From sequence record PX306536.1: a DNA stretch of 14,939 nucleotides; one strand, written 5' to 3'. A model generated the notes under the pieces. The model did no database searches, had not been told where the DNA came from, and saw only the letters and a program-made list of their open reading frames with translations. Below are positions 1-14,939 of this stretch, one piece after another (position 1 is the first letter of the stretch; every line of letters starts with the position of its first letter). Made by a program: the position numbers and the translations under genes. This stretch comes from a phage.

Positions 1-110
1 GGGGATACGTGCCCCTCCCCACCTACCCGCGCCCCTAACATTTTTATTTCCGTCTGTCAATACCCCCTGCATCCGATAGGCCCGAACTATCACAAACGGA
101 AAAGCGATAG
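1..110. repeat. Left inverted terminal repeat (110 bp), genome terminus starting GGGG
   Basis: Positions 1-110 are the exact reverse complement of 14830-14939; the match breaks at position 111 versus 14829. C-rich tracts and repeated GATAG/CTATC motifs lie inside. Confidence 0.95.
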
Positions 111-143
111 CCCAAAACACTAAGCCCCTTTTCATCATTTCAT

Positions 144-173
144 TTGTAAGCGCGTTTAAAATCATGGTAAAAT
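144..173 (+). promoter_or_regulatory. Candidate sigma70-like early promoter for the left early operon (VIII-I)
   Basis: TTGTAA (144-149), 18-nt spacer, TAAAAT (168-173), about 60 nt upstream of the gene VIII ATG at 233. Sequence inspection only. Confidence 0.35.
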
Positions 174-232
174 AACCACTACCCCAAATTGCGCCCCTGC
201 AATTTGCTGACGGTTTAACGGAAGGCGGAAAC

Positions 233-1012: not shown

Positions 1013-1015
1013 TAT

Positions 1016-2677
1016 ATGCCGCGCCGTTCCCGTAAAAAGGTTGAATATAAAATTGCAGCCTTTGACTTTGAAACTGACCCTTTCAAGCATGACCGTATCC
1101 CTAAACCGTTTTCATGGGGTTTTTATAATGGTGAAATTTATAAAGACTATTGGGGCGATGATTGCATAGAACAGTTTATTTACTGGCTGGATACCATAGA
1201 AGAACCCCACGTCATATACGCGCATAACGGCGGCAAGTTTGATTTTCTTTTTCTCATGAAATACTTTCGCGGGAAATTGAAAATAGTTAATGGGCGTATT
1301 TTGGAAGTCGAACACGGTATCCATAAATTCCGCGATAGTTATGCAATCCTACCGGTGCCACTTGCTGCCAGCGATGAAAAGATAGAAATTGATTATGGCA
1401 AGATGGAAAGGGAAACCCGCGAACAGCACAAGGCGGAAATTTTAGAATACCTTAAAGGCGATTGTGTCACCTTGCATAAAATGGTTAGTTTGTTTATTGC
1501 TGAATTTGGAATGCGCCTAACCATAGGCGGTACGGCAATGAATGAATTAAAACAGTTCCACCCTTATGACCCGGTGCGCAAAGGCTTTGATGAAGCTATG
1601 CGCCCCTTTTATTTTGGTGGAAGGTGCCAAGCATTCGAGAAAGGAATAATAGAAGATGATATTAAAGTTTATGACGTTAATAGCATGTACCCCCATGCTA
1701 TGCGAAATTTCCGCCACCCTTTCAGCGATGAATTTTATGAAGCCGATGAAGTAACGGAAGAAACTTATTTTATTGAATGGGAAGGCGAGAATAACGGCGC
1801 GGTGCCAGTAAGGACTAAAACAGGATTAGACTTTAATCAGCGTAGCGGCATTTTCCATACGTCAATCCATGAATGGCAGGCGGGCATTGATACCGGCACG
1901 ATTAAACCTAATCGGATTATAAGGACAATCAATTTTACTGAAACAACCACTTTCGGCGCATTCATTGACCATTTCTTTAGCAAGCGTGACGCGGCCAAAA
2001 AGGCGGGCGATTTATTCCACAATATTTTTTACAAACTTATTTTAAATAGCAGTTATGGGAAGTTTGCGCAAAACCCCGAAAATTATAAAGAGTGGTGCAT
2101 AACGGAAGGCGGCATTTATTTAGAAGGCTATGACGGCGAAGGGTGCGAAGTACAGGAACATTTAGATTATATTTTATGGGGTAGGCCCGCTGAAATGTTT
2201 AATTATTTTAACGTGGCAGTGGCGGCAAGTATTACAGGCGCGGCCCGTTCCGTTTTATTGCGGGCATTGGCGCAAGCGGAAAGGCCGCTTTATTGTGACA
2301 CTGATTCTATTATTTGCCGTGATTTAAAAAATGTCCCGCTTGACGCATACCAGCTAGGCGCGTGGGATTTGGAAGCAACCGGCGATAAAATAGCGATTGC
2401 CGGTAAAAAATTATATGCGCTTTACGCTGGTGATAATTGCGTTAAAATTGCAAGTAAGGGGGCTAGTCTGGTTCCGCGTGATATTGGGTTTTTAATGCCC
2501 CCGGATATGGAACCGAAAGCCGCCAAAAAGGTAGCGCAACAAAAGGCTAAAAATATTGGTGGCGAGAAAATTTTAAAGGTGGCTAATGGCGGCGTGTATG
2601 ATTTTGTAAATGATGCCCCGTCATTTAAGCTAAATGGCAACGTGCAATTTATCAAGCGCACAATCAAAGGAACATAA
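1016..2677 (+). CDS. I: Protein-primed family B DNA polymerase P1, 553 aa
   Basis: Exo I FDFETD, Exo II YAHNGGKFDFLF, Exo III YLKGDCV; polymerase motif A DVNSMYPHAM, motif B KLILNSSYGKFAQ, motif C YCDTDS (2291-2308). RBS AAGGGGG at 1001-1007. Confidence 0.95.
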   Translation: MPRRSRKKVEYKIAAFDFETDPFKHDRIPKPFSWGFYNGEIYKDYWGDDCIEQFIYWLDTIEEPHVIYAHNGGKFDFLFLMKYFRGKLKIVNGRILEVEHGIHKFRDSYAILPVPLAASDEKIEIDYGKMERETREQHKAEILEYLKGDCVTLHKMVSLFIAEFGMRLTIGGTAMNELKQFHPYDPVRKGFDEAMRPFYFGGRCQAFEKGIIEDDIKVYDVNSMYPHAMRNFRHPFSDEFYEADEVTEETYFIEWEGENNGAVPVRTKTGLDFNQRSGIFHTSIHEWQAGIDTGTIKPNRIIRTINFTETTTFGAFIDHFFSKRDAAKKAGDLFHNIFYKLILNSSYGKFAQNPENYKEWCITEGGIYLEGYDGEGCEVQEHLDYILWGRPAEMFNYFNVAVAASITGAARSVLLRALAQAERPLYCDTDSIICRDLKNVPLDAYQLGAWDLEATGDKIAIAGKKLYALYAGDNCVKIASKGASLVPRDIGFLMPPDMEPKAAKKVAQQKAKNIGGEKILKVANGGVYDFVNDAPSFKLNGNVQFIKRTIKGT

Positions 2678-2678
2678 A

Positions 2679-3128
2679 ATGCAATATACACTTTGGGATA
2701 TTATCAGCCGCGTGGAAAGCAACGGGAATTTAAAAGCGTTGCGGTTTGAACCGGAATACTATCAGCGGCGCATGGCGCGGGGCGATTGGAATAATTCGAT
2801 TATTCAAAATATCCGCGCCGCCAATAAATGCAGCTTAGGCACTGCCCGCATGATTTATTGCAGTTCATGGGGCGCGGTTCAAATCATGGGATTTAATCTT
2901 TATTTGGACGGCGCATTTAATTTGAGCGTTGCGCATTTCATGGAAAATGAAGCGTATCAAGTAAATGAATTTCGGCGCTTCCTTTTGAAAAATGGATTAA
3001 CTGAATATACGCCTGAAAGGCTGGCGAGTGATAAAGCGGCCCGCGTTAAATTCGCCAAGGTTTATAACGGCGCTGAAAGTTACGCGGATTTAATTTTGCA
3101 AGCCTGCCAATTTTACGGGGTGAAATAA
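2679..3128 (+). CDS. XV: Soluble lytic enzyme P15 (muramidase-type endolysin), 149 aa
   Basis: ATG at 2679 preceded by RBS AAAGGA (2666-2671), immediately after the polymerase stop. The ORF track's upstream extension to 2634 overlaps the polymerase and lacks an RBS. Size matches PRD1 P15. Confidence 0.8.
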
Positions 3129-4903
3129 TGGCTAATTTCAACGTGCCTAAATTGGGCGTTTTTCCGGTTGCTGCCGTTTTCGATATTGACAACGTGCCGG
3201 AAGATTCCAGCGCAACGGGTAGCCGCTGGCTACCTTCAATTTATCAGGGCGGTAATTATTGGGGCGGTGGCCCGCAAGCGTTGCGCGTTCAGGTAAGCAA
3301 TTTTGATGCTACTAACCGCCTGCCCTATAACCCGCGCACTGAAAATAACCCGGCTGGAAATTGCGCTTTTGCGTTTAATCCTTTCGGTCAATATATTTCT
3401 AATATCAGTAGTGCGCAAAGTGTGCATAGGCGCATTTACGGAATCGACCTAAATGATGAACCGCTTTTCACGCCTAACGCTGCAAGCATTACAAACGGCG
3501 GCAATCCTACAATGTCGCAAGATTATGCTTATCACAATATCGGCCCGATTAATTCCGCGTATAAGGCCGAAATTTTCCGGCCTGTAAATCCGTTGCCAAT
3601 GAGTGATACAGCGCCTGACCCTGAAACATTGGAACCGGGGCAAACGGAACCGCTTATTAAATCCGATGGTATTTATTCAAATAGCGGTATTGCGTCATTT
3701 ATTTTTGATAGGCCCGTAACGGAACCTAACCCAAATTGGCCCCCGCTGCCCCCGCCTGTAATTCCAATTATTTACCCTACCCCCGCGCTAGGCATTGGCG
3801 CGGCGGCGGCGTATGGCTTTGGCTATCAAGTGACGGTTTATAGATGGGAAGAAATACCCGTTGAATTTATCGCTGACCCTGAAACCTGCCCCGCGCAACC
3901 GACAACGGATAAGGTAATAATCAGGACAACCGATTTAAACCCGGAAGGTTCGCCGTGCGCTTATGAAGCCGGAATTATTTTAGTTCGCCAAACGTCTAAC
4001 CCAATGAATGCGGTAGCGGGGCGGCTGGTTCCTTATGTTGAAGATATAGCGGTTGATATTTTCCTGACAGGGAAATTTTTCACGCTTAACCCGCCTTTGC
4101 GAATTACCAATAATTATTTTGCGGATGATGAAGTAAAAGAAAACACTGTCACCATAGGCAATTACACTACCACGCTTTCAAGCGCCTATTATGCAATGTT
4201 TAAAACTGACGGCTACGGCGGGGCCACTTGCTTTATAGCGTCTGGTGGTGCTGGTATTTCCGCGCTTGTTCAATTGCAAGATAATAGCGTTTTGGACGTG
4301 CTTTATTATTCGCTGCCGCTTTCATTGGGTGGAAGCAAAGCGGCAATTGATGAATGGGTGGCGAATAATTGCGGGCTTTTTCCTATGTCCGGTGGGCTGG
4401 ATAAAACCACGCTGCTAGAAATTCCGCGCCGTCAATTGGAAGCTATAACCCCGCAAGATGGGCCGGGGCAGGATGATTTATTTATTCTGGATGATTCCGG
4501 CGCGTATGCTAGTTTTTCATCCTTTATCGGTTTTCCTGAATCCGCCTATTATGTTGCAGGCGCTGCCACTTTTATGGACGTTGAAAACCCGGATGAAATT
4601 ATTTTTATCTTGCGAAATGGCGCGGGCTGGTATGCTTGCGAAATTGGCGATGCGTTAAAAATTGCGGATGATGAATTTGATTCCGTGGATTATTTCGCGT
4701 ATCGCGGGGGCGTTATGTTTATTGGTTCGGCGCGTTATACCGAAGGGGGCGACCCGCTACCCATTAAATATAGGGCGATTATTCCAGCGTTGCCGCGTGG
4801 GCGTTTGCCGCGTGTAGTGTTAGAATATCAAGCGGTGGGAATGTCGTTTATTCCTTGTCAAACGCATTGCCTTGGCAAAGGCGGAATTATTTCAAAGGTG
4901 TAA
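3128..4903 (+). CDS. II: Receptor-binding (adsorption) protein P2, 591 aa
   Basis: 591-aa ORF, start overlaps the XV stop (TAATG); position and size match PRD1 P2. Confidence 0.85.
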
Positions 4904-4906
4904 ATT

Positions 4907-5287
4907 ATGAATGTGAATAATCCCAATCAAATGACGGTAACGCCTGTTTATAACGGTTGCGATTCCGGCGAAGGCCCGCAAAGTGTGCGCGGTTACTTTG
5001 ACGCGGTAGCGGGCGAGAATATCAAGTTTGATATGACTTATCTTGCCGATACGCAAGGCTTTACCGGCGTTCAATGTATCTATATTGATAACGCGGAAAA
5101 TGACGGCGCGTTTGAAATTGACGTTGAAGAAACGGGCCAGCGGATTAAATGCCCTGCCGGTAAGCAAGGCTATTTTCCTTTGCTGGTTCCGGGCCGTGCT
5201 AAATTTGTGGCGCGTCATTTGGGCAGCGGCAAAAAATCGGTGCCTTTGTTTTTCCTTAACTTCACTATTGCGCAAGGGGTTTGGTAA
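4907..5287 (+). CDS. XXXI: Penton (vertex base) protein P31, 126 aa
   Basis: 126 aa, RBS AAAGGTG upstream; paralogous to the N-terminal domain of the next ORF (TGQRIxxxAGxQGYxP...F[LI]NFxIAxGVW). Confidence 0.85.
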   Translation: MNVNNPNQMTVTPVYNGCDSGEGPQSVRGYFDAVAGENIKFDMTYLADTQGFTGVQCIYIDNAENDGAFEIDVEETGQRIKCPAGKQGYFPLLVPGRAKFVARHLGSGKKSVPLFFLNFTIAQGVW

Positions 5288-6309
5288 TGGCTAATCAACA
5301 AATTGGCGGTAGCACGGTAACTTATAACGGCGCTATCCCTATGGGTGGCCCGGTGGCAATTAATACCGTTATTGAAATTGCAGGCACGGAAGTTTTAGTT
5401 GATTTAAAACTTGACTATGCAACCGGCAAAATTTCGGGCGTTCAAACTCTTTATATCGACTTGCGCGATTTTTTGGGTGACGTAACCGTGACCATGCCGG
5501 ACACCGGGCAGCGCATTACGGCGCGGGCAGGTACGCAAGGTTATTACCCGGTGCTATCCACTAACCTTATGAAATTCATTGTATCCGCCACTATTGACGG
5601 AAAATTCCCAATGAATTTTATTAACTTCCCTATTGCGCTTGGCGTATGGCCTAGCGGAATTAAAGGCGATAAAGGCGACCCCGGCGCACCCGGCCCCGCT
5701 GGTGGTACGGTTGTTGTTGAAGATTCCGGCGCGTCATCTGGTGAAAGCCTGCTAGACACTACCAGCGAACCGGGCAAAATTCTGGTTAAACGAATTTCGG
5801 CGGGCAGCGGAATTACCGTTACTGATTATGGCGATGAAGTGGAAATTGAAGCCAGCGGCGGCGGTGGTGGCGGTGGCGGTGTAACTGATGCGCTTTCATT
5901 AATGTATTCGACCAGTACGGGCGGGCCTGCAAGTATTGCGGCCAATGCGCTTACTGATTTTGATTTGTCCGGGGCGCTGACTGTAAATAGCGTGGGAACT
6001 GGTTTGACAAAATCAGCCGCTGGCATTCAATTAGCGGCGGGTAAATCCGGGCTTTATCAAATTACCATGACGGTAAAAAATAATACCGTGACAGCGGGAA
6101 ATTATTTATTGCGCGTTAAATACGGTAGTAGTGAATTTGTAGCGGCCTGCCCCGCCAGTAGCCTGACCGCTGGCGGTACAATTTCACTACTGATTTATTG
6201 CAACGTGTTAGGCGTTCCAAGCCTTGACGTGCTAAAATTCAGTTTGTGTAATAGCGGGGCGGCGCTTAGTAATTACATTATTAATATCACTGCCGCGAAA
6301 ATTAATTAA
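5287..6309 (+). CDS. V: Vertex spike protein P5, 340 aa, with P31-like N-domain, collagen-like Gly-X-Y stretch and Gly8 hinge
   Basis: ATG at 5287 overlaps the XXXI stop (TAATG); the track's 5281 start is a TTG. N-domain similar to P31; GIKGDKGDPGAPGPAGG at 5656-5706; Gly8 at 5857-5880. Confidence 0.88.
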   Translation: MANQQIGGSTVTYNGAIPMGGPVAINTVIEIAGTEVLVDLKLDYATGKISGVQTLYIDLRDFLGDVTVTMPDTGQRITARAGTQGYYPVLSTNLMKFIVSATIDGKFPMNFINFPIALGVWPSGIKGDKGDPGAPGPAGGTVVVEDSGASSGESLLDTTSEPGKILVKRISAGSGITVTDYGDEVEIEASGGGGGGGGVTDALSLMYSTSTGGPASIAANALTDFDLSGALTVNSVGTGLTKSAAGIQLAAGKSGLYQITMTVKNNTVTAGNYLLRVKYGSSEFVAACPASSLTAGGTISLLIYCNVLGVPSLDVLKFSLCNSGAALSNYIINITAAKIN

Positions 6310-6327
6310 CCTGAAAGGTGACTGAAA

Positions 6328-6588
6328 ATGATGGGAAAAGGTTTTGAAATGATGGTTGCCAGCGCAATCCGTGCCGCTGGTATTAATCCTGATGAATTGA
6401 TGGAAAAGGCTAATACCCTTGTCCATAATTTGAATTACCAGCTTGACCGATTCGGCCAGCGGCTGGATTCCATTGATTCGCGCCTTTCGGTAATTGAAAA
6501 GGCGCTTGATATTTCCCCGGCAGAAAAGCCGGACAATCAGCCCGAATTAACGGGTATTACTTTTGAAGGTGACGCCAATGACCAATGA
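6328..6588 (+). CDS. XVII: Assembly protein P17, 86 aa
   Basis: 86-aa ORF with RBS GAAAGGTGA upstream; size and position match PRD1 P17. Confidence 0.75.
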   Translation: MMGKGFEMMVASAIRAAGINPDELMEKANTLVHNLNYQLDRFGQRLDSIDSRLSVIEKALDISPAEKPDNQPELTGITFEGDANDQ

Positions 6589-6784
6589 AGAAAAATTGAT
6601 TGCTGAAATTGATAGCGCGGGCCTTTCGGCTGAAATGCTGGAATCCATGCCAAGCCCTGAAATGTTCCCGCTTATTATTGTCAATCTGCAAGGGCGTATT
6701 GCCGAACTGGAAGCGCGGGAAACTGAAATGCTGGCCCGCGTTGATACGCTGATTGCCCGCCTTGCGCATTTGGGGGTAGCCTAA
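6578..6784 (+). CDS. XXXIII: Assembly protein P33, 68 aa
   Basis: ATG at 6578 preceded by GAAGGTGA; the track's 6563 start is a TTG. Overlaps the XVII 3' end by 11 nt; coiled-coil-like sequence. Confidence 0.7.
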   Translation: MTNEEKLIAEIDSAGLSAEMLESMPSPEMFPLIIVNLQGRIAELEARETEMLARVDTLIARLAHLGVA

Positions 6785-7284
6785 TGGATACCGAAGAAAT
6801 TAAAGAGGAAATGCAGGAAGCCGCCGAAGCCGCCATAGAAAACGCGGTTGAAACTGCCGAACTGGAAACAGCCGCTATTAAAGCGGAAGGGGCGGCGGCA
6901 GCGGCGGAACAATCGGCAGAACAAGCGGCGGTAATGGCCGCGACCCTTGCCGCAAGTGTTGAAGCAAACGCCGCGCAACAAATCGCGGAACATTCGGAAC
7001 AGGTACAAACACAAGAGGAAAAAATATCATGGCTGGAAAATCAAGTAATGGCGATGGCGTCAAATTTGCAGATGATGCAGGAAGCGGTAACAGCATTGAC
7101 GGTATCGCAATCATTGACCCCGGAACCGTCACCAGCGCCAGCGGTGGAAGTGGAAGCGATGCCGGAAGCGGTGACAGTGGAAATACTCCCCGAAAGCGCG
7201 GGCGACCAGCCGGAAGCGGAACCGGCGCAAAGCGTGGGCGACCAGCCGGAAACAGCGCCGCGAAAAAGGTTCCGGGCAATCTAG
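6784..7284 (+). CDS. VI: Minor capsid / DNA packaging protein P6, 166 aa, acidic and Ala/Glu-rich
   Basis: 166-aa ORF, start overlaps the XXXIII stop (TAATG); strongly acidic low-complexity N-terminal half. Confidence 0.8.
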   Translation: MDTEEIKEEMQEAAEAAIENAVETAELETAAIKAEGAAAAAEQSAEQAAVMAATLAASVEANAAQQIAEHSEQVQTQEEKISWLENQVMAMASNLQMMQEAVTALTVSQSLTPEPSPAPAVEVEAMPEAVTVEILPESAGDQPEAEPAQSVGDQPETAPRKRFRAI

Positions 7285-7640
7285 GCGTTGAAAAAATCCT
7301 TTTCAGTTTGCACTTGATGGCGTCAAGCGCGTTGAAGGTTGAAGAACTGGCGCTTGATGAAAAGGAAGCCGAAGCCCTTGCCGGGGCAGTGCAGGAAGTG
7401 GCGAGCCATTACGATATTACCCCTGACCCTAAAATCATGGCATGGGCGGGATTGTTTGGCGTTTGCGCTTCTATTTATGGCCCCCGCGTTGCAGCTTATA
7501 AAATGCGGGCGGCGGCTGAAAAGCGCGATAAAAAGGAAGCGGCTAAACCGATGGCCCAAAAGGTACAGGAAGCCAAGCCAACGGAACATGACCCGGCAGC
7601 GCCTTACATTGAACAATTGCCAGTAAGTAACCTGCTATGA
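7029..7640 (+). CDS. X: Assembly (scaffolding-like) protein P10, 203 aa, overprinted on the 3' third of gene VI
   Basis: 203-aa ORF in a different frame from VI, overlapping it by 256 nt; contains two KRGRPAG AT-hook-like motifs. Confidence 0.8.
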   Translation: MAGKSSNGDGVKFADDAGSGNSIDGIAIIDPGTVTSASGGSGSDAGSGDSGNTPRKRGRPAGSGTGAKRGRPAGNSAAKKVPGNLGVEKILFSLHLMASSALKVEELALDEKEAEALAGAVQEVASHYDITPDPKIMAWAGLFGVCASIYGPRVAAYKMRAAAEKRDKKEAAKPMAQKVQEAKPTEHDPAAPYIEQLPVSNLL

Positions 7641-8320
7641 CAATACGAATGCCAAACGATAGACAACGTATTCTAGTGCTAGGCAAAACCGGCACCGGGA
7701 AAACTTGCGCCGCCGTTTGGCATTTATCCCAAAAGGATTTTAAGCGCAAGGCGTGGATTGTCCTAAACCATAAGGGCGATGATTTAATTGATTCCATTGA
7801 AGGGGCTAACCATGTAGATTTAAATTTTCGACCTAAAAAACCGGGGCTTTATATTTACCATCCTATCCCTGATGTTGATGATGCGGAAGTAACGCAATTG
7901 CTTTGGGATATTCACGCGATGGGCGATATTGGCGTTTATGTTGATGAAGGGTACATGATTCCAAACCGTGACCCGGCATTTCAGGCGCTACTTACTCAAG
8001 GCCGGAGTAAGAAAATCCCGATGATTATTTTAAGCCAGCGGCCCGTATGGCTTACCCGCTTTGCCATTTCGGAATCGGATTTTTTCCAGATATTCCAATT
8101 AGGCGACCAGCGCGATAGGCAAACCGTGCAAGGTTTTGTTCCGGTGGATTTGGAAAAATTAATGCAAGCGCCTGTAAATACAGTGCCAGCATTAAAAAAA
8201 TTCCATTCAATTTATTATGACGTGGGCGCTAATAATTGCGTTATAATGACACCGGTTCCTACCGCTGACGCCGTTTTGGCCCGGTTCGACCTTGGCAAGA
8301 AAAGAAAGCAAACCCTGTAA
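7637..8320 (+). CDS. IX: DNA packaging ATPase P9, 227 aa
   Basis: Walker A GKTGTGKT (7682-7705) and Walker B-like IGVYVDEG; ATGA overlap with the gene X stop. Confidence 0.92.
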   Translation: MTIRMPNDRQRILVLGKTGTGKTCAAVWHLSQKDFKRKAWIVLNHKGDDLIDSIEGANHVDLNFRPKKPGLYIYHPIPDVDDAEVTQLLWDIHAMGDIGVYVDEGYMIPNRDPAFQALLTQGRSKKIPMIILSQRPVWLTRFAISESDFFQIFQLGDQRDRQTVQGFVPVDLEKLMQAPVNTVPALKKFHSIYYDVGANNCVIMTPVPTADAVLARFDLGKKRKQTL

Positions 8321-8331
8321 AGGAAAACGCT

Positions 8332-8460
8332 ATGACTGAAAATATCATTAGTTGGAATGTCGCCAATTGGGTGACAGTAATTTTAATGGCGCTTGCCGGT
8401 TATGCGGTGCTGGCTTTAGCTGCCAAGGTAATTAACAACCGCGCACAGGAACCGGCATAA
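8332..8460 (+). CDS. XX: Small single-pass membrane protein, 42 aa, P20-like (packaging vertex)
   Basis: ATG at 8332 with RBS AAGGA; one hydrophobic helix (NWVTVILMALAGYAVLALAA); size matches PRD1 P20. Confidence 0.65.
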   Translation: MTENIISWNVANWVTVILMALAGYAVLALAAKVINNRAQEPA

Positions 8461-8588
8461 TGGTTAATTGGGAATTGTTGAAAAACCCCATTAATTGGCT
8501 TATCGTCATTCTCATGCTGACCATTGCAGGAATGGCGGCTACCCTTGTTTGTAACCACTTCGGCAAAAATGCCGTCACTTCGGAGTAA
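8460..8588 (+). CDS. Small single-pass membrane protein, 42 aa, tandem paralog of the preceding ORF (could correspond to P22 or an unnamed ORF)
   Basis: TAATG overlap with the preceding ORF; shares the NW-x-x-VILM transmembrane pattern with it. Confidence 0.55.
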   Translation: MVNWELLKNPINWLIVILMLTIAGMAATLVCNHFGKNAVTSE

Positions 8589-8594
8589 TTAAAT

Positions 8595-9782
8595 ATGGCA
8601 CAGGTTCAACAACTGACCCCCGCTCAACAGGCGGCATTGCGCAATCAGCAGGCTATGGCGGCAAACTTGCAGGCCCGTCAAATTGTCCTGCAACAGTCTT
8701 ACCCTGTTATCCAGCAGGTTGAAACGCAAACTTTCGACCCGGCTAACCGTTCCGTGTTTGACGTGACCCCGGCGAACGTGGGCATTGTCAAAGGCTTTTT
8801 GGTGAAGGTAACGGCGGCTATCAAAAATAACCACGCTACCGAAGCGGTGGCCCTTACTGACTTCGGCCCGGCTAACCTTGTTCAACGTGTCATTTATTAT
8901 GACCCGGACAACCAGCGCCACACTGAAACCAGCGGCTGGCATTTGCATTTTGTGAATACCGCCAAACAAGGTGCGCCGTTCCTTTCCAGCATGGTAACGG
9001 ATTCGCCCATTAAGTACGGCGATGTTATGAACGTCATTGATGCCCCGGCAACTATTGCGGCGGGCGCTACTGGCGAACTGACCATGTACTATTGGGTTCC
9101 GCTTGCCTATTCCGAAACCGATTTGACCGGGGCGGTTTTGGCGAACGTGCCGCAAAGTAAGCAGCGCCTGAAACTGGAATTTGCGAACAACAATACCGCC
9201 TTTGCGGCGGTGGGCGCTAATCCGCTGGAAGCGATTTATCAGGGCGCGGGCGCGGCTGATTGCGAGTTTGAAGAAATTTCTTACACCGTTTATCAGTCTT
9301 ACCTTGACCAACTGCCGGTAGGCCAGAACGGTTATATCCTGCCGCTGATTGACCTTTCCACTTTGTACAATCTGGAAAACAGCGCACAGGCAGGGCTTAC
9401 CCCTAACGTGGATTTTGTGGTGCAGTATGCAAACCTGTATCGCTACCTTTCCACAATCGCGGTATTCGATAACGGCGGCAGCTTCAATGCTGGCACCGAT
9501 ATTAACTACCTTAGCCAGCGCACGGCTAACTTTTCGGATACCCGGAAACTTGACCCGAAAACGTGGGCCGCGCAAACTCGCCGCCGTATCGCTACCGATT
9601 TTCCGAAGGGCGTTTATTATTGCGACAACCGCGATAAGCCGATTTACACCCTTCAATATGGTAACGTGGGCTTTGTCGTGAATCCTAAAACGGTCAATCA
9701 AAATGCCCGTTTGCTGATGGGTTACGAATACTTCACCAGCCGCACCGAACTGGTGAATGCTGGCACCATTTCCACCACTTAA
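8595..9782 (+). CDS. III: Major capsid protein P3 (double jelly-roll), 395 aa
   Basis: 395-aa ORF beginning MAQVQQLTPAQQAAL, which matches my recollection of the PRD1 P3 N-terminus; correct size and position. Confidence 0.95.
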   Translation: MAQVQQLTPAQQAALRNQQAMAANLQARQIVLQQSYPVIQQVETQTFDPANRSVFDVTPANVGIVKGFLVKVTAAIKNNHATEAVALTDFGPANLVQRVIYYDPDNQRHTETSGWHLHFVNTAKQGAPFLSSMVTDSPIKYGDVMNVIDAPATIAAGATGELTMYYWVPLAYSETDLTGAVLANVPQSKQRLKLEFANNNTAFAAVGANPLEAIYQGAGAADCEFEEISYTVYQSYLDQLPVGQNGYILPLIDLSTLYNLENSAQAGLTPNVDFVVQYANLYRYLSTIAVFDNGGSFNAGTDINYLSQRTANFSDTRKLDPKTWAAQTRRRIATDFPKGVYYCDNRDKPIYTLQYGNVGFVVNPKTVNQNARLLMGYEYFTSRTELVNAGTISTT

Positions 9783-9800
9783 TAAAGGGGGCATTCCGCC

Positions 9801-9944
9801 ATGCAGCTAATCACTGATATGGCGGAATGGTCTAAAAAGCCATTCCGCCCTGATATGTCGCTAACCGGCTGGCTTGCGTTTGTGGGCCTAATCATTGTTG
9901 CCATTATCCTTTGGCAGCAAATTATCCGTTTCATTATCGAATAA
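9801..9944 (+). CDS. Small membrane protein, 47 aa (size matches PRD1 P22; assignment uncertain)
   Basis: ATG at 9801 after GGGGG; one transmembrane helix; start codon sits in the left arm of an 11-bp inverted repeat, with an in-frame Met7 at 9819. Confidence 0.5.
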   Translation: MQLITDMAEWSKKPFRPDMSLTGWLAFVGLIIVAIILWQQIIRFIIE

Positions 9945-9954
9945 GGAAACTACC

Positions 9955-10038
9955 ATGAAAATTTTCGGCATTTCTGTTTTCACAATCGCCCTTATTGCCT
10001 TGGCTTACTACCTTGGCACTAAGCGCATTATCGGGTAA
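9955..10038 (+). CDS. Small hydrophobic protein, 27 aa (unnamed ORF)
   Basis: ATG at 9955 with RBS AAGGA (9943-9947); the translation is essentially one transmembrane helix. Confidence 0.4.
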   Translation: MKIFGISVFTIALIALAYYLGTKRIIG

Positions 10039-10043
10039 CGATT

Positions 10044-10166
10044 ATGCGCGGCAATTTGGCGCTTGCCATGATTCTATTTGGCTTTGTCGTGTATGCCGCA
10101 AATAGCGGCGCTTTCGGGCGCTTGCTTTATGTAATCGGGTTCCGCGATAAACCGGAGGGATATTAA
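10044..10166 (+). CDS. Small membrane protein, 40 aa (unnamed ORF)
   Basis: ATG at 10044 with a weak RBS; hydrophobic core ILFGFVVYAA; fills the gap before XVIII exactly. Confidence 0.35.
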   Translation: MRGNLALAMILFGFVVYAANSGAFGRLLYVIGFRDKPEGY

Positions 10167-10167
10167 T

Positions 10168-10440
10168 ATGCCCTTCGGTTTAATCGTTATTGGAATCATC
10201 CTTGCAATAGCCGCTTACCGCGATACGCTTGGCGAATTGTTTAGCATCATTAAGGACGTTTCAAAAGATGCTAAGGGGTTTGGCTATTGGGTATTGGCGG
10301 CGGTTATTTTGGGATTCGCGGCAAGTATCAAGCCAATAAAAGAGCCGGTTAATGCGTTTATGATTTTGCTGATGATTGTTCTACTAATCCGCAAGCGTGG
10401 CGCTATTGACCAAATTTCTAACCAACTAAGGGGCAGCTAA
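10168..10440 (+). CDS. XVIII: Membrane DNA-delivery protein P18, 90 aa
   Basis: Strong RBS GGAGGGA (10153-10159); two hydrophobic segments; size matches PRD1 P18. Confidence 0.75.
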   Translation: MPFGLIVIGIILAIAAYRDTLGELFSIIKDVSKDAKGFGYWVLAAVILGFAASIKPIKEPVNAFMILLMIVLLIRKRGAIDQISNQLRGS

Positions 10441-10604
10441 TGGGCGAGTTTGGCAAAACCCTAATAACGATTGTGACGGCTATTATTGGCGTTGCAATTA
10501 TTGCCGTTATCGTGTCACAGCGAAGTAATACGGCTGGCGTGATTCAATCCGCCACAAGCGGATTTTCCAATATCCTTAAATCGGCGCTTGCGCCTATCAT
10601 TTAA
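10440..10604 (+). CDS. XXXII: Membrane DNA-delivery protein P32, 54 aa
   Basis: TAATG overlap with XVIII, RBS AAGGGG; transmembrane helix followed by NTAGVI motif; paralog of the next ORF. Confidence 0.7.
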   Translation: MGEFGKTLITIVTAIIGVAIIAVIVSQRSNTAGVIQSATSGFSNILKSALAPII

Positions 10605-10616
10605 AAGGTGAATGAC

Positions 10617-10823
10617 ATGAATGATTTTGTTGGCCCTATCGTTACCGTTTTGACCGCTATTATCGGCGTGGCAATTCTTGCCGTGCTGGTTAGCCGCAAC
10701 AGTAATACCGCTGGCGTTATCAAGGCCGGTTCCGGTGGCTTTTCCAGTATGCTAGGCACGGCGCTTTCGCCTGTTACTGGTGGCACTGGTTTTGCCATGA
10801 CCAATAATTACAGCGGTTTTTAA
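10617..10823 (+). CDS. XXXIV: Membrane protein P34, 68 aa, paralog of P32
   Basis: ATG at 10617 with RBS AAAGGTGA; the track's 10608 start is a GTG. Shares TAIIGVAI-x-AV-x-VS-x-SNTAGVI with P32. Confidence 0.7.
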   Translation: MNDFVGPIVTVLTAIIGVAILAVLVSRNSNTAGVIKAGSGGFSSMLGTALSPVTGGTGFAMTNNYSGF

Positions 10824-10832
10824 GGGGGTAAC

Positions 10833-11087
10833 ATGGCACTGATTAATCCGCAATTTCCATACGCGGGGCCGGTGCCGATTCCCGGCCCTGCCCCTACCGA
10901 AACCATGCCGCTTTTGAATTACCGGGTAGAAGGCCGCATTGCTGGTATTCAGCAGGCGCGGCAGTTTATGCCGTTCCTGCAAGGGCCGCACCGGGCGGTA
11001 GCCGAACAAACCTATCACGCGATTGGTACAGGTATTCAAATGGGGCAAACATTCAATCAGCCCTTGATTAACACTCAAGAGGGCTAA
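10833..11087 (+). CDS. XXX: Minor capsid protein P30 (capsid-stabilising / tape-measure-like), 84 aa
   Basis: 84-aa Pro-rich extended protein with RBS AAGGGGG upstream; size matches PRD1 P30. Confidence 0.75.
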   Translation: MALINPQFPYAGPVPIPGPAPTETMPLLNYRVEGRIAGIQQARQFMPFLQGPHRAVAEQTYHAIGTGIQMGQTFNQPLINTQEG

Positions 11088-11089
11088 GG

Positions 11090-11200
11090 ATGAAAACCGC
11101 CATTTTTATATTGGCTGTAATGTTTGCGGCTTTGCTTTGGCTAGGCCGCGAGCATTGCATTTTGTGCCAATGGTTCAAACGCATTTCAAACGGGGCTTAA
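11090..11200 (+). CDS. Small membrane protein, 36 aa (unnamed ORF)
   Basis: ATG at 11090 following GAGGG; transmembrane helix FILAVMFAALLWL; exactly fills the XXX-XI gap. Confidence 0.4.
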   Translation: MKTAIFILAVMFAALLWLGREHCILCQWFKRISNGA

Positions 11201-11201
11201 T

Positions 11202-11825
11202 ATGGAAAAGGTAAAAGCATGGCTCATTAAATATAAGTGGTGGATTGTGGCGGCTATTGGTGGCCTTGCCGCATTTCTGCTACTTAAAAACCGTGGCGGT
11301 GGTGGCGGCGGCGGCGGTGAATATATGGTAGGAAGCGGGCCGGTTTATCAGCAGGCCGGAAGCGGCGCGGTGGATAACACTATGGCGCTTGCTGCCCTGC
11401 AAGCCAATACGCAACTATCCGCACAGAATGCACAATTGCAGGCGCAAATGGACGCCAGCCGTTTGCAGCTTGAAACCCAATTGAACATTGAAACGCTTGC
11501 CGCTGATAACGCGCATTACAGCACGCAAAGCCAATTGCAGCTTGGCATGGCGCAAGTGGATTTGTCTAAATACCTTGGCGACCTGCAAAGCACCACTAGC
11601 ACGGCGCTTGCTGGTATGCAATCCGATACCGCCAAGTATCAAAGCAATATCCAATTGCAGGCCGAAAATATCCGCGCTAATACTTCACTTGCTGAAATTG
11701 ACGCGCAAAAATACATTGTCGGCAAACAAGCCGATATTGCCAAGTATCAAGCGAAAACAGAACGGCGCGGGCAGGACTACGGTTTTGCTTTGGGCTTGCT
11801 GAATTTCGGCGGCAAATTCTTTTAA
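11202..11825 (+). CDS. XI: DNA-delivery protein P11, 207 aa, with N-terminal membrane anchor, Gly8 linker and Gln-rich domain
   Basis: 207-aa ORF; Gly8 at 11295-11318; Q/A-rich repetitive body; size matches PRD1 P11. Confidence 0.85.
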   Translation: MEKVKAWLIKYKWWIVAAIGGLAAFLLLKNRGGGGGGGGEYMVGSGPVYQQAGSGAVDNTMALAALQANTQLSAQNAQLQAQMDASRLQLETQLNIETLAADNAHYSTQSQLQLGMAQVDLSKYLGDLQSTTSTALAGMQSDTAKYQSNIQLQAENIRANTSLAEIDAQKYIVGKQADIAKYQAKTERRGQDYGFALGLLNFGGKFF

Positions 11826-11835
11826 GGGGTAAATC

Positions 11836-12189
11836 ATGGACAAAAAGAAATTGCTTTATTGGGTGGGCGGCGGGCTGGTGCTGATTCTTATCTGGCTTTG
11901 GTTCCGCAATCGACCAGCCGCGCAAGTGGCAAGCAATTGGGAAGGCCCGCCGTATATGACGTATAACCAGCCGCAAGCCGGTAGCGTCACCCTGCCGGTG
12001 GCTGGCTATACTTCGCCTTCCCTGACACTGCCGAACCGCAACCGTTCATGCGGTTGTAACCCGGCAGTATCGGCAGCAATGGCACAGGGCGCGGATTTGG
12101 CAAGTAAATTGACTGAAAGCATTTCCAGCCAGCTTAATAACTATGCCGAAAGTCTTAATGATTATTTGGCTTCACAAGCGGGGGTTTAA
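11836..12189 (+). CDS. XVI: Vertex-membrane linker / infectivity protein P16, 117 aa
   Basis: RBS AAGGGG; N-terminal transmembrane helix; size matches PRD1 P16. Confidence 0.75.
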   Translation: MDKKKLLYWVGGGLVLILIWLWFRNRPAAQVASNWEGPPYMTYNQPQAGSVTLPVAGYTSPSLTLPNRNRSCGCNPAVSAAMAQGADLASKLTESISSQLNNYAESLNDYLASQAGV

Positions 12190-12999
12190 ATGGCTGGTGC
12201 GCTGCAATGGTGGGAAACTATCGGCGCGGCTTCGGCGCAATATAACCTTGACCCGCGCCTAGTGGCCGGGGTTGTCCAAACGGAATCATCCGGCAACCCC
12301 CGCGCCATTTCAGGCGCGGGCGCTATGGGTTTAATGCAGCTTATGCCAGCGACCGCCAAAAGTTTAGGCGTAACAAACGCCTATGACCCTACACAAAACA
12401 TTTATGGTGGCGCGGCCCTTTTGCGTGAAAACCTTGATAGATACGGCGATGTTAATACGGCGTTGCTTGCTTATCACGGCGGAACTAATCAAGCAAATTG
12501 GGGCGCTAAAACAAAATCTTATCCGGGTAAGGTTATGGAAAATATCAATTTGCTTTTCGGTAATAGCGGCCCGGTAGTAACGCCAGCGGCAGGAATTGCG
12601 CCAGTATCCGGGGCGCAAGAAATGACCGCCGTTAATATCAGCGACTATACCGCGCCTGATTTAACGGGGCTTACTATGGGGGCGGGTAGTCCTGAATTTA
12701 CAGGCGGGGCTAGTGGTTCATGGGGCGAAGAAACGCCAGAAGAAAACGTGCCGTGGTATCGCGTAGATAAGCACGTTGCGAACGCGGCGGGTTCCGCTTA
12801 TGACGCGGTGGCAGGGGCAGTAAGCGCACCAGTGGAAGCGGCAGGAAACTACGCCTTGCGGGGCGTGGTAATTATTGCGGCGGTGGCAATTGTTGTTGTT
12901 GGTTTGTACTTCCTTTTTCAAGATGAAATTAACAGCGCCGCCATGAAGATGATTCCAGCCGGTAAGGCGGCAGGGGCAGCGGCTAAGGCAATGTCATGA
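12190..12999 (+). CDS. VII: Virion lytic transglycosylase P7 (SLT domain) with C-terminal membrane anchor, 269 aa; C-terminal portion may also be made as P14
   Basis: SLT catalytic signature VVQTESSGNPRAISGAGAMGLMQLMPATA; C-terminal transmembrane helix VVIIAAVAIVVVGLYFLF. Confidence 0.9.
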   Translation: MAGALQWWETIGAASAQYNLDPRLVAGVVQTESSGNPRAISGAGAMGLMQLMPATAKSLGVTNAYDPTQNIYGGAALLRENLDRYGDVNTALLAYHGGTNQANWGAKTKSYPGKVMENINLLFGNSGPVVTPAAGIAPVSGAQEMTAVNISDYTAPDLTGLTMGAGSPEFTGGASGSWGEETPEENVPWYRVDKHVANAAGSAYDAVAGAVSAPVEAAGNYALRGVVIIAAVAIVVVGLYFLFQDEINSAAMKMIPAGKAAGAAAKAMS

Positions 13000-13349
13000 T
13001 GGGAAATGATGAATGGTGGAAGTATCTAATTTTTCCGCTAGTGGCTACGCTTGGCGGAATTGTCAATTACTCAAAAAGGGCGCTTGCCATGAAACGCTTT
13101 TCTAAACTTGAATTTGCGGTTGAAGCGGTAAGCGCCGCGTTTGTGGGCTTGATGGTAACGCTAGGCGGGGCGGCTATGGATTTATCGCCGCACTGGCTAG
13201 GCATGGCGGCGGGAATGTCTGGATGGATGGGCGCGGATTTTGTCAAGGCGGTTTTCTCGCAATTTGTGCAAAGCAAGATTGGCCCTATCAATCAGCCGGG
13301 GCCGATAGATTCCGACAATGACAAGCCGGGGCGAACCTTCAATGATTAA
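12996..13349 (+). CDS. XXXV: Holin P35, 117 aa
   Basis: Multiple hydrophobic helices with a charged C-terminus, located directly upstream of a spanin pair; ATGTCATGATG overlap with the VII stop. Confidence 0.8.
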   Translation: MMGNDEWWKYLIFPLVATLGGIVNYSKRALAMKRFSKLEFAVEAVSAAFVGLMVTLGGAAMDLSPHWLGMAAGMSGWMGADFVKAVFSQFVQSKIGPINQPGPIDSDNDKPGRTFND

Positions 13350-13704
13350 ATGGGTTTTGTCTAACCTGAAAAGCGTGGCCGCTATTGCGGTTGCGCTTTT
13401 AATGCTTGCTAACTTTGGTTATTCAATTTTAGCGGCTAAAAAAATAACGGGGCTTCAAAATGAAATTAAAGCCATTGAAGAAAAGGCGACCGCAAACGCC
13501 AAAGCGGTGGAAGCCCTTCAATCAGTACGCGCAAGCGATGCGAAAGCAATCGCGGCAATTCAGGAAGGCCAGACAATTATCAGCGGCAAACTTAGCCGAA
13601 CAATTAGCGGATTGGGAAGGGTAAGCGATGAAACTAAACAAATTCTTGATAGTCCTATGCCTGCCGATGTTCGCGGCTTGTTCAACAACAGCCCCGAAAA
13701 TTGA
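13318..13704 (+). CDS. XXXVI: Rz-like inner-membrane spanin P36 (alternative start ATG 13342)
   Basis: N-terminal transmembrane helix followed by a coiled-coil-like periplasmic domain; overlaps the holin 3' end. Confidence 0.7.
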
Positions 13705-13900
13705 AACCGTTTATCTGGTTCCGCCGCCAAGCCTGCTAACTGAATGCGCCGCGCCTGTTTATCCGTTTATAACGTGGCGGGATTTGGTGGAAGCATACGC
13801 AAAAGAAAAGGCCGCAAGGGAATCATGCGGCCTTCAAATTCAAGAAATAAAAAACTGGTTTAAAGAAACAGTTCCAAGCGAAAGCCGAAAGTTTCAGTAA
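13628..13900 (+). CDS. XXXVII: Rz1-like outer-membrane lipoprotein spanin P37, 90 aa, overlapping the XXXVI 3' end in another frame
   Basis: Signal peptide with lipobox-like FAAC then Pro-rich VPPPS; own RBS GGGAAGGG (13612-13619). Confidence 0.7.
13801..13834 (-). terminator. Intrinsic terminator for the leftward early transcript, embedded in the XXXVII coding sequence
   Basis: 9-bp GC-rich stem AAGGCCGCA/TGCGGCCTT (13808-13816 and 13826-13834) with a 9-nt loop, followed on the minus strand by UUCUUUUG; lies 26 nt beyond the gene XIX stop. Confidence 0.55.
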
Positions 13901-14144
13901 TCAGCTTGCCAAGCCATTCAGCTTGCGTAACGCCAGCGGGCGTAAAACCGTTATCGGCAAACCGCAAATCAAAATGTTCGCTTACCACGCGGATAGCGCC
14001 CTTGACTTGATAAACAGCGGCAAGCGCGGTGCTGCCATACATAAGCGATGAAGCAAAAGGCGTTTGTCCAAAGTCGCCGGGAATGGACACAAAATAAAAT
14101 GCCTTCGGGCATTCAGGGCGGTTATTTTCGGTTTGCTTTTCCAT
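13860..14144 (-). CDS. XIX: ssDNA-binding protein P19, 94 aa
   Basis: Minus-strand ORF with RBS AAAGGTAAC upstream; second gene of the right early operon; 3' end overlaps XXXVII convergently. Confidence 0.75.
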
Positions 14145-14177
14145 GTTTGTTACCTTTGAATTTGAAGGGTAAAGAAT

Positions 14178-14204
14178 GGCCCCGCGCTGGTATCAGCCGG
14201 GGCC
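14178..14204 (-). other. GC-rich stem-loop in the XII-XIX intergenic region (possible attenuator or RNA stability element)
   Basis: GGCCCCG...CGGGGCC with extra inner pairing, roughly 11 bp with one bulge and a 4-nt loop; followed on the minus strand by AUUCUUUA. Confidence 0.4.
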
Positions 14205-14216
14205 GTGGCGCGTTGA

Positions 14217-14699
14217 TTAGGCTTCGGCCTTGGCCTTGGCCTTGGCGGCGGGCTTGGCTTCGCCAGCGGCTTCACCGGCAGCGGCAGGGGCAGGCAGCGC
14301 GGCCTTAACCTGATTGCGAAGCGCGGCCAGTTCATCCGATGCGGCGGGTTCAATCAGCGGCTTGACACCGTATTCATAACCAGTGTTGCCCTTTTCGGAA
14401 GGCTTGGCCCAAATTTCAACCGCAAAATCAACCGTGTTTTCACCATCCACGGCACCGGCAAGCAGGCTTTCCAGTACCTTCGGCAGAATCAGCGCACCGG
14501 AACGGAACACTTCACCAGTGGCGATATTCACGCCTTCAAATTCACCTTCAAACTTGATGAAGTCGCCAAAGGTGGATTGACCAACTTTCTTACCGCGAAC
14601 GCGGCCATAGATGGAAGCCAGCGCGGTATTTTCCTTGATGCTGTGCGGCTTCGGTTGTGCGCCAATGGTTTTCAGAGTCAGCTTGCTTACGATTTCCAT
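14217..14699 (-). CDS. XII: ssDNA-binding protein P12, 160 aa, with Ala/Lys-rich C-terminal tail
   Basis: 160-aa minus-strand ORF, first gene inside the right ITR; RBS AAAGGTAAC; tail AAKAKAKAEA encoded by a GGCCTT x3 repeat. Confidence 0.88.
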   Translation of the reverse strand: MEIVSKLTLKTIGAQPKPHSIKENTALASIYGRVRGKKVGQSTFGDFIKFEGEFEGVNIATGEVFRSGALILPKVLESLLAGAVDGENTVDFAVEIWAKPSEKGNTGYEYGVKPLIEPAASDELAALRNQVKAALPAPAAAGEAAGEAKPAAKAKAKAEA

Positions 14700-14768
14700 G
14701 ATAGTTACCTTTAAAGTTAAGTGGAAGTTATCGGCGGGGGTTTTGTGTTTGCCCTTTCGATGATTGAA

Positions 14769-14796
14769 ATTATACGCGCATTTTTAGGACGTGCAA
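14769..14796 (-). promoter_or_regulatory. Sigma70-like early promoter for the right early operon (XII-XIX)
   Basis: On the minus strand: TTGCAC (14791-14796), 16-nt spacer, consensus TATAAT (14769-14774), AT-rich upstream; about 70 nt upstream of the XII ATG. Confidence 0.6.
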
Positions 14797-14829
14797 TAGT
14801 TATGACGAAAATAAATCAAAATTTTATTC

Positions 14830-14939
14830 CTATCGCTTTTCCGTTTGTGATAGTTCGGGCCTATCGGATGCAGGGGGTATTGACAGACGGAAATAAAAAT
14901 GTTAGGGGCGCGGGTAGGTGGGGAGGGGCACGTATCCCC
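14830..14939. repeat. Right inverted terminal repeat (110 bp), genome terminus ending CCCC
   Basis: Exact reverse complement of positions 1-110. Confidence 0.95.

Follow-up and report, generated by a model that had tools for sequence, protein, structure and literature searches.

Gene layout between the packaging ATPase and the major capsid protein

The window, by which we mean the whole stretch of 14,939 bases that was analysed (PX306536.1), represents a complete PRD1-like alphatectivirus genome with an overall identity to PRD1 of 97.5%. Across the whole window, the closest record in the collection searched is at most approximately 98% identical, while the region from 7600 to 9900 displays 90–100% identity to 75 phage records. 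In this part of the genome, the coordinates of the GenBank record of PRD1 (AY848689) coincide with those of the window, and IX, ORFi, XX, III and XXII are all annotated in that record. All features described below are located on the plus strand unless stated otherwise. Gene IX (7637–8320, coordinates as in AY848689) encodes the packaging ATPase P9, which in the window shares 100% protein identity with many alphatectiviruses, and is the upstream neighbour of two small open reading frames, namely ORF i, also termed gpi (8332–8460; 'ORFi hypothetical protein' in AY848689), and gene XX (8460–8588, coordinates as in AY848689). Downstream of this pair lies gene III (8595–9782), annotated in AY848689 as encoding the major capsid protein P3, which in relatives matches PF09018 and PF25514. 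Gene XXII (9801–9944, coordinates as in AY848689), encoding the 47-aa protein P22, is located 3' of the capsid gene. AY848689 labels both XX (P20) and XXII (P22) as DNA packaging genes.

The first-pass annotation of this DNA had described two tandem membrane ORFs of equal length (42 aa) behind the packaging ATPase, coupled by a TAATG overlap and sharing an N-W-x-x-VILM core, and each of these features is borne out. ORF i (translation MTENIISWNVANWVTVILMALAGYAVLALAAKVINNRAQEPA) and gene XX (translation MVNWELLKNPINWLIVILMLTIAGMAATLVCNHFGKNAVTSE) encode 42 aa each, with calculated masses of 4541 and 4671 Da and GRAVY values of 0.73 and 0.79, respectively. The TAATG motif is located at 8458–8462, where the TAA stop codon of ORF i (8458–8460) and the ATG start codon of gene XX (8460–8462) have one A in common. 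An AGGA motif resembling a Shine-Dalgarno sequence, as read from the sequence, is located 7 nt 5' of the ORF i start codon (8321–8324), and a second AGGA motif of this kind is found 9 nt 5' of the gene XX start codon (8447–8450), inside the 3' end of ORF i. The pair thus displays the sequence arrangement of a translationally coupled gene pair, with both a stop/start overlap and a downstream Shine-Dalgarno-like motif inside the upstream gene. A scan of the sequence for promoters and terminators yielded nothing decisive.

The two ORFs carry their conserved cores, as defined by the column frequencies of their respective families (see below), at residues 9–19, these being NVANWVTVILM in ORF i (8356–8388) and NPINWLIVILM in P20 (8484–8516). 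The shared NWVTVILM and NWLIVILM segments are in register, and the residues N9, N12, W13, V16, I17, L18 and M19 are identical at equal residue numbers in both ORFs. Direct comparison of the two proteins by BLASTP returned 10 identities over 18 positions (E=0.002 as a single comparison), a match that is weak on its own. AlphaFold2, run on 16 family members, predicts one unbroken helix that spans residues 2–39 (mean pLDDT 87), and ORF i is thus predicted to be a membrane protein with a single helix.

Assignment of P20 and P22

The first-pass annotation had left open which of the two 42-aa ORFs corresponds to P22, and had pointed to a separate 47-aa ORF behind the capsid gene. The latter ORF is indeed present at 9801–9944. 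The second 42-aa ORF is 100% identical over its 42 aa to a cluster of proteins named 'Packaging protein P20' or 'vertex membrane protein', and agrees with P20 of PRD1 in sequence, position and mass. The published masses are 4.7 kDa for P20 and 5.5 kDa for P22 (PMC4267777), while the calculated mass of the 47-aa product is 5534 Da. It is therefore near certain that 8460–8588 encodes P20, the product of gene XX. The 47-aa ORF is P22 and neither 42-aa ORF is, as gene XXII is located at 9801–9944 and the mass of 5.5 kDa fits the 47-aa ORF only. P22 was also considered as the identity of ORF i or P20 and rejected, as mass, position and sequence are all wrong: in profile comparisons (hhalign) against the real P22 family, the ORF i-like family scored 9.8 (probability 0.7%) and the P20-like family 18.4 (19%).

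The existence of the two ORFs, the identity of P20 and the location of P22 are thus largely known from public annotation. Later alphatectivirus records follow the same naming, listing a 'hypothetical protein' and then the 'vertex membrane protein P20', and each of the 75 annotated alphatectivirus records labels ORF i a 'hypothetical protein'. In PHROGs, ORF i matches phrog_15703 (function 'unknown') and P20 corresponds to phrog_16195, with function labels being absent for these families. No Pfam family was found for ORF i, P20 or P22, and a sequence search of the PDB did not return an entry matching any of the three. The paralogous relationship between ORF i and P20, the universal presence of the pair in this large tectivirus clade, and the co-variation between the two proteins, each of which is presented below, appear not to have been described previously.

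Conservation and linkage of the pair in related tectiviruses

In order to assemble relatives of the locus, an alignment of P9 was employed to gather loci from IMG/VR, JGI metagenomes and GTDB genomes, to which contigs encoding relatives of ORF i were added, resulting in a total of 188 loci with a P9 homologue (39–100% identity). Families A (ORF i-like) and B (P20-like) were called by HMMs. As a word-indexed protein search with P20 yielded only two clusters, homologues of P20 were gathered by synteny. Among the 174 loci with sufficient downstream DNA, 171 carry a family A gene followed by a family B gene between the ATPase and capsid genes. The exceptions are two loci (L062 and L093) that encode a divergent family A ORF ('ISVENFITIGLML') and one locus (L096) that ends at a contig edge. 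The first-pass annotation had asked whether the second ORF persists in related genomes, and it was found that both ORFs are conserved.

The non-redundant set consists of 128 pairs, in which family A proteins are 37–55 aa and family B proteins 36–82 aa in length. A close arrangement is kept in 116 of these pairs, the family B start codon being located between -14 and +13 nt from the family A stop codon, while an exact 1-nt overlap is found in just 15 of the 128; the stop/start overlap as such is therefore not conserved. Shine-Dalgarno-like motifs precede most family A start codons in the rows sampled. Additionally, 134 of 142 loci carry a P22 homologue 3' of the capsid gene, indicating that the three small membrane genes travel together.

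ORF i as a constrained coding gene

The selective pressure on the ORF i frame was assessed by pairwise Nei-Gojobori comparisons among alphatectivirus-like genomes, where dS was estimable. The resulting dN/dS values were 0.11–0.28 for ORF i as compared to 0.05–0.17 for P20 and 0.05–0.11 for P9 and P3, the ORF i frame thus being under purifying selection while synonymous sites are near saturation. Two minus-strand ORFs (8400–8558 and 8432–8578) overlap the pair; the selection signal is located in the plus-strand frames.

Searching 5.8 billion clustered proteins with ORF i identified 15 clusters of 42–46 aa with 60–98% identity over the aligned proteins, across which the motif IISWNVANW is invariant. 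When a profile of these clusters was searched against 1.84 billion representative proteins, 330 clusters matched with E<=1e-3. Almost all of them are 38–70 aa in length, and the best 150 of these 330 clusters all score as family A and none as family B. The ORF is kept in all 128 non-redundant pairs despite the length range of 37–55 aa. Furthermore, in the group of phages comprising PRDaquamarine, canary and pistachio, a 1-bp deletion just 5' of the ORF i stop codon has been absorbed such that the ORF is retained as a protein of 44 aa, with a tail that is longer by 2 aa and an 8-nt overlap with gene XX.

The mean pairwise identity is 0.41 for ORF i, 0.36 for P20 and 0.38 for P22, ORF i being slightly better conserved than these two essential membrane proteins. 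In 81 distant loci, identity to the window over residues 5–19 is 67% for ORF i as compared to 56% for P20, while over residues 20–42 it is 23% and 22%, respectively. ORF i is thus a coding gene that is conserved throughout these relatives, and it is highly probable, given these patterns together with the profile comparisons presented below, that it represents a translated and strongly constrained paralog of P20.

Homology of the ORF i and P20 families

The family A consensus, derived from 124 distinct sequences, is E-[TN]-I-[IL]-[ST]-W-N-x-A-N-W-[IV]-T-V-x-L-M-...-G-F, in which N12 and M19 are invariant and W8 and T15 are present in 98% and 96% of sequences, respectively. The corresponding family B consensus (123 distinct sequences) is [ILV]-N-x-x-L-L-K-[HN]-P-x-N-W-x-x-V-x-L-M-...-A-G, with N3 and N12 being invariant, P10 present in 94%, W13 in 95% and M19 in 98% of sequences. 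In both families, the conserved part comprises the N-terminal juxtamembrane segment and the first turns of the helix. ORF i resembles P20 of PRD1 in its architecture, i.e. 42 aa (where P20-like proteins are of approximately 40 aa), one long predicted helix and an N-x-x-N-W-x-x-V-x-L-M core in register at residues 9–19, as well as in its homology at the family level. It differs from P20 in that it constitutes a family of its own, with a W8-N9/T15 signature as opposed to K8-[HN]9-P10 in P20.

Comparison of the two family profiles by hhalign returned a probability of 97.5% (E=8e-12) and a score of 55.8 over 39 columns. As transmembrane segments may give rise to false profile matches, a number of controls were run. 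Reversed alignments scored 16, 100 column shuffles of family B reached a mean of 9.3 and a maximum of 16.4, while 100 shuffles restricted to the hydrophobic core reached a mean of 13.6 and a maximum of 27.1. The score of the true comparison is far above all of these controls; the similarity is therefore specific, and the reading of the ORFs as a duplicated pair, as proposed in the first-pass annotation, holds. This result supports homology of the ORF i and P20 families beyond a shared hydrophobic composition and strengthens that reading, in which two distinct homologous families occur always together and in the same order. At the DNA level, 71% identity is limited to one in-register stretch of 24 nt at a spacing of 128, indicating that any duplication is old. 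A recent DNA duplication is ruled out, the remaining 24-nt stretch being accounted for by the protein motif.

Small membrane genes at the equivalent position in other tectiviruses

Among more distant phages, Rhodococcus phage Toil lacks a family A/B pair and has a single, unrelated ORF of 44 aa in the interval from the ATPase gene to the coat gene, and Thermus phage phiKo possesses no small ORF at that position. Bam35 (Betatectivirus) encodes two 46-aa single-pass membrane ORFs, ORF15 and ORF16, in tandem directly after the ATPase gene (ORF14), and another small membrane ORF (ORF19) follows its capsid gene. It differs in that an additional gene, ORF17, is located between ORF15/ORF16 and the capsid gene. 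ORF15 and ORF16 have been labelled as candidates for a role in the special vertex or in DNA packaging (PMC8539640). Comparison of these two proteins with families A and B yielded at best 5.8 bits, and the comparison of ORF15 with ORF16 was likewise not significant; the likeness to Bam35 is a positional analogy only. In the gammatectivirus GC1, homologues of both ORF i and P20 were identified, namely GC1_00010 (E 1.6e-17) and GC1_00011 (E 5.8e-16), which lie between the ATPase and capsid genes in an unchanged order but are separated by a 1-nt gap rather than overlapping, and both of which are annotated only as hypothetical. The family assignments allow annotators to name these two genes, as well as their counterparts on hundreds of metagenomic tectivirus contigs.

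Predicted membrane topology

The flanks of the predicted helix differ between the two proteins: ORF i has an acidic N-terminal flank and a strongly basic C-terminal flank, whereas P20 is without such a bias. In family A, the N-terminal flank contains on average 0.08 K+R and 1.38 D+E residues while the C-terminal flank contains 1.94 K+R residues, and K+R residues are more frequent on the C-terminal side in 119 of the 124 sequences. In family B, 57 sequences display more K+R residues on the N-terminal side, 53 are tied and 13 have more on the C-terminal side, which represents a slight lean opposite to that of family A. According to the positive-inside rule, the basic flank of a membrane protein is cytoplasmic, and the C-terminus of ORF i is thus predicted to face the cytoplasm. 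Since PRD1 obtains its membrane from the cytoplasmic membrane of the host, this terminus would be directed towards the capsid in the virion. For P20, the rule gives an ambiguous prediction. The differing charge bias suggests that the helices of ORF i and P20 may differ in topology, which would complicate an in-register parallel dimer.

Co-variation between ORF i and P20

When column pairs between the two proteins were ranked by mutual information (MI-APC) across the 128 paired sequences, the highest-ranking pair consisted of residue 20 of ORF i (Ala in the window; codon at 8389–8391) and residue 20 of P20 (Leu in the window; codon at 8517–8519), i.e. in both proteins the position directly after the conserved M19. 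The combinations observed (ORF i+P20) are V+V in 51 pairs, A+L in 46, A+V in 10, V+A in six and G+L in four, and these look size-compensating. The pair of columns was additionally assessed for changes on the same branches of a neighbour-joining tree of P9 by Fitch parsimony, which identified 12 co-changes on the same branch as compared to 2.3 expected (hypergeometric p=3e-8), placing it at rank 1 among 1260 A-B column pairs. The general inflation caused by branch-length heterogeneity is approximately 1.4-fold, and the best of 12,212 control pairs, in which columns of A or B were combined with columns of P9, reached p=3e-6. Residue 20 of ORF i thus co-varies with residue 20 of P20, and this signal is suggestive of a helix-helix contact between the two proteins, without counting against a contact between P20 and P22.

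In the subset of 94 loci that also contain P22, the best A-B pairs reached p values of approximately 6e-6 and 2e-5, which is no better than those of the best A-P22 or B-P22 pairs. The three pairings are thus similar in their best p value in this subset, and the co-variation does not single out ORF i over P22 as the partner of P20.

ORF i and the published model of the packaging vertex

PRD1 is the reference for DNA packaging through a lipid bilayer in membrane-containing icosahedral viruses (the PRD1-adenovirus lineage), yet to our knowledge no structure to date shows individual residues in the membrane part of its portal. Over decades of PRD1 genetics, packaging mutants have been obtained in XX and XXII, and we know of none that was assigned to ORF i. 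In the published model, P20 and P22 are small integral membrane proteins that make up the DNA conduit across the membrane at the unique packaging vertex, and the same two proteins nucleate the binding of P6 and the ATPase P9 (PMC4267777). The vertex location of P20, and the need for this protein in packaging and in P6/P9 binding, derive from the PRD1 mutant Sus526 (PMC4267777); this role is assumed to hold for P20 of the window since the protein is identical to that of PRD1. Hong et al. (2014), who employed maps at 14–22 Å together with XX and XXII amber mutants, interpreted the transmembrane density at the unique vertex as a hexamer of P20/P22 heterodimers, and estimated from its volume a mass of approximately 69 kDa for the conduit as compared to 60.6 kDa for six copies each of P20 and P22 (PMC4267777). 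The authors were unsure whether each mutant misses both proteins, and ORF i goes unmentioned in their study (PMC4267777). Between them, the low resolution of the maps and the ambiguity of the mutants mean that the published assignment of the conduit leaves room for ORF i.

All 31 of the 31 PRD1 genes were reported to be conserved in 51 new alphatectiviruses, while for uncultured tectiviruses the same study reported homologues of P1, P9, P18, P32 and P3 only (Quinones-Olvera et al. 2024; PMC11015023). No mention of 'ORF i' or 'gpi' of PRD1 was found in the open-access literature searched, and the cryo-EM paper on PR772 is without proteomics on ORF i, P20 and P22.

A proposed role for ORF i as a membrane partner of P20

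The first-pass annotation regarded both ORFs as membrane proteins of the packaging vertex. For the second ORF this stands, as it is P20 of PRD1 (PMC4267777). For ORF i, such a role can be inferred from its paralogy with P20, its linkage to gene XX and the co-variation at residue 20, and it remains conditional, as do its physical contact with P20 and its presence in the virion. We consider the chances to be about even that ORF i partners with P20 in the membrane of the packaging vertex, the two proteins forming a heterodimer whose interface lies in the conserved core and includes residue 20. In such a scheme, a single late mRNA would give rise to both ORF i and P20, whose amounts would probably be matched by means of the TAATG overlap. 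Both proteins would insert into the host membrane, where their helices may pack against each other as a heterodimer, residue 20 of either protein being located where the helices meet. The resulting pair, together with P22, would then form or stabilise the membrane part of the packaging vertex. P22 is itself similar to the pair in that it belongs to the same module, is small, spans the membrane once and is present in the same genomes, and it has been proposed as the heterodimer partner of P20 (PMC4267777). It differs from the pair in its gene position behind the capsid gene, its size (47 aa, 5.5 kDa) and the absence of any detectable relation to either ORF. The stricter version of the proposal, whereby the vertex contains ORF i in stoichiometric amounts as a third membrane subunit, and ORF i is the direct helix partner of P20 instead of or beside P22, is put forward tentatively and is judged possible rather than probable. 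Against a partner role, six copies of ORF i (27 kDa) in addition to the 60.6 kDa of P20 and P22 exceed the conduit estimate of approximately 69 kDa, and the mass of the conduit is roughly met without ORF i. Moreover, the co-variation signal comes from a single strong column pair, evaluated by parsimony on a neighbour-joining tree of P9.

As a third protein, equally conserved, P20-like and encoded beside P20, ORF i constitutes an obvious candidate subunit or assembly partner that is absent from current models. If ORF i were such a third subunit, the model of the conduit as a 'hexamer of P20/P22 heterodimers' would be incomplete, and the conduit would instead be organised around two single-pass proteins related by duplication, which are conserved in hundreds of uncultured tectiviruses as well as in alphatectiviruses and gammatectiviruses. 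The co-variation at residue 20 offers a concrete handle for mutational analysis of this proposal.

Alternative roles for ORF i

ORF i may alternatively be a paralog of P20 that does not enter the virion, serving transiently in the host membrane as a helper for the insertion of P20 or for assembly of the vertex nucleus. Conservation, paralogy, linkage and co-variation are accommodated equally well by a helper, which, better than a partner, explains the absence of ORF i from virion protein lists, and which also explains why the mass of the conduit is roughly satisfied by P20 and P22 (PMC4267777). Assembly proteins are in addition annotated in PRD1, namely the non-structural proteins P10, P17 and P33, which act at other steps. 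A chaperone, however, has no obvious need to carry the conserved juxtamembrane motif of its client across a whole clade, nor would it obviously be expected to be more conserved than P20 itself, and we regard a helper role as rather unlikely, if a serious contender.

A role unrelated to packaging, with ORF i being a small membrane protein that is located beside gene XX as a result of duplication and that functions in membrane remodelling, lysis timing, DNA delivery or superinfection exclusion, appears improbable. PRD1 does possess other small hydrophobic ORFs without an assigned role (ORFx, ORFl and ORFq), many of its small membrane proteins serve DNA delivery (P18, P32 and P34), and PHROGs lists the ORF i family under unknown function. 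However, the adjacency, order and tight spacing of the two genes within the ATPase-capsid block have been maintained in 171 of 174 loci over a very long divergence, the co-variation at residue 20 points to a common complex with P20, and the lysis genes and most delivery genes are located further downstream.

Finally, the notion that the first ORF is untranslated, having been annotated in error or acting merely as a leader for the expression of gene XX, is essentially excluded despite its hypothetical label in every record, as the frame is under purifying selection with synonymous sites near saturation and is kept in 128 of 128 pairs of varying length, N12 and M19 are invariant across the 124 family A sequences, 330 clusters match the profile, and the 1-bp deletion in the PRDaquamarine group has led to a tail that is longer by 2 aa rather than to loss of the ORF.

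Variation at the junction of the tandem ORFs and charge asymmetry of their products

The window sequence from position 8300 to 8620, which carries both 42-aa ORFs, is 100% identical to that of PRD1, PR4, PR5 and many other phages. In the window, ORF i (8332-8460, + strand) and gene XX, which encodes the packaging-vertex membrane protein P20 (8460-8588, + strand), overlap by 1 nt. In the phages PRDaquamarine, PRDcanary and PRDpistachio (ORF i at L005 8290-8424, L006 8199-8333 and L007 8218-8352, respectively), a single base pair directly ahead of the ORF i stop codon (window 8458) is deleted, which shifts the gene end, yielding a 44-aa product with the tail ...EPANG and an overlap with XX of 8 nt rather than 1 nt. 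The retention of the ORF despite this 1-bp deletion shows that the extreme C terminus of ORF i and its exact overlap with XX are free of constraint. A sigma-70-like match (TTAACA-18-CATAAT, 10/12) is located in the 3'-terminal part of ORF i, extending up to the XX start codon (window 8432-8461); this may be a chance occurrence, since nine such matches were observed over the whole region against 4.3 expected.

Charge asymmetry was scored across each of the two paralog families, the scored segments corresponding in the window to residues 1-12 and 32-42 of both ORF i and P20. Family A, to which ORF i belongs, displays a strong C-terminal positive bias (119 of 124 sequences), while family B (P20) is neutral in charge or slightly positive at the N-terminus. 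Because the asymmetry differs between the paralogs, it is possible that ORF i and P20 insert in opposite orientations.

Divergent loci and the tandem ORFs of Bam35

Tryptophan occupies residue 17 of both paralogs in three of the 128 non-redundant pairs, all from distant loci (L016/L154 3710-4027 and L116 3221-3485; TIWLM and IVWLM / TVWTL), which hints at a second sign of parallel change at this homologous position, three cases being too few for testing. At two divergent loci (L062 2203-2990 and L093 829-1555), an additional ORF of approximately 75-90 aa separates the ATPase gene from the small-gene pair, the ORF i-like protein is strongly diverged (ISVENFITIGLML...) and the P20-like protein is lengthened to a frame of >100 aa.

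The betatectivirus Bam35 resembles PRD1 in that tandem membrane ORFs of equal length (46 aa) directly follow the packaging ATPase gene. The Bam35c products ORF15 and ORF16 (L191 1647-1787 and 1804-1944), both single-pass membrane proteins, share a terminal '...AV'; homology was undetectable either to the PRD1 pair or between the two. The N...M spacing of KNIIVLWLM in ORF15 recalls the N-W-x-x-V-x-L-M core, at a score of only 5.8 bits.

Relationship to known records and other genes

Whole-length comparison with the phage collection identified no record identical to the window (1-14939). The highest whole-length identities were to PKJ.Vi.20.1 (98.2%, at 99% coverage) and vB_Bco-CSP1 (97.9%); that to PRD1 is 97.5%. 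The small hydrophobic ORFs ORFx, ORFl and ORFq of PRD1 (window 9955-10038, 10044-10166 and 11090-11200, respectively) are labelled hypothetical in every record.

Whereas an accessory genome has been reported to be absent from the PRD1-like phage group (PMC11015023), a 15.4-kb PRD1-like contig, whose P9 packaging ATPase is 74% identical to that of the window, carries an accessory DNA methylase gene (PF00145; L019 14457-15224) close to its right end. An alphatectivirus-like contig of 14.9 kb was binned in an 'Erysipelothrix' MAG, an assignment that is probably an artefact; its homologue of the spike protein P5 (L017 5280-6944) contains collagen repeats and comprises 554 aa, compared to 340 aa in PRD1.
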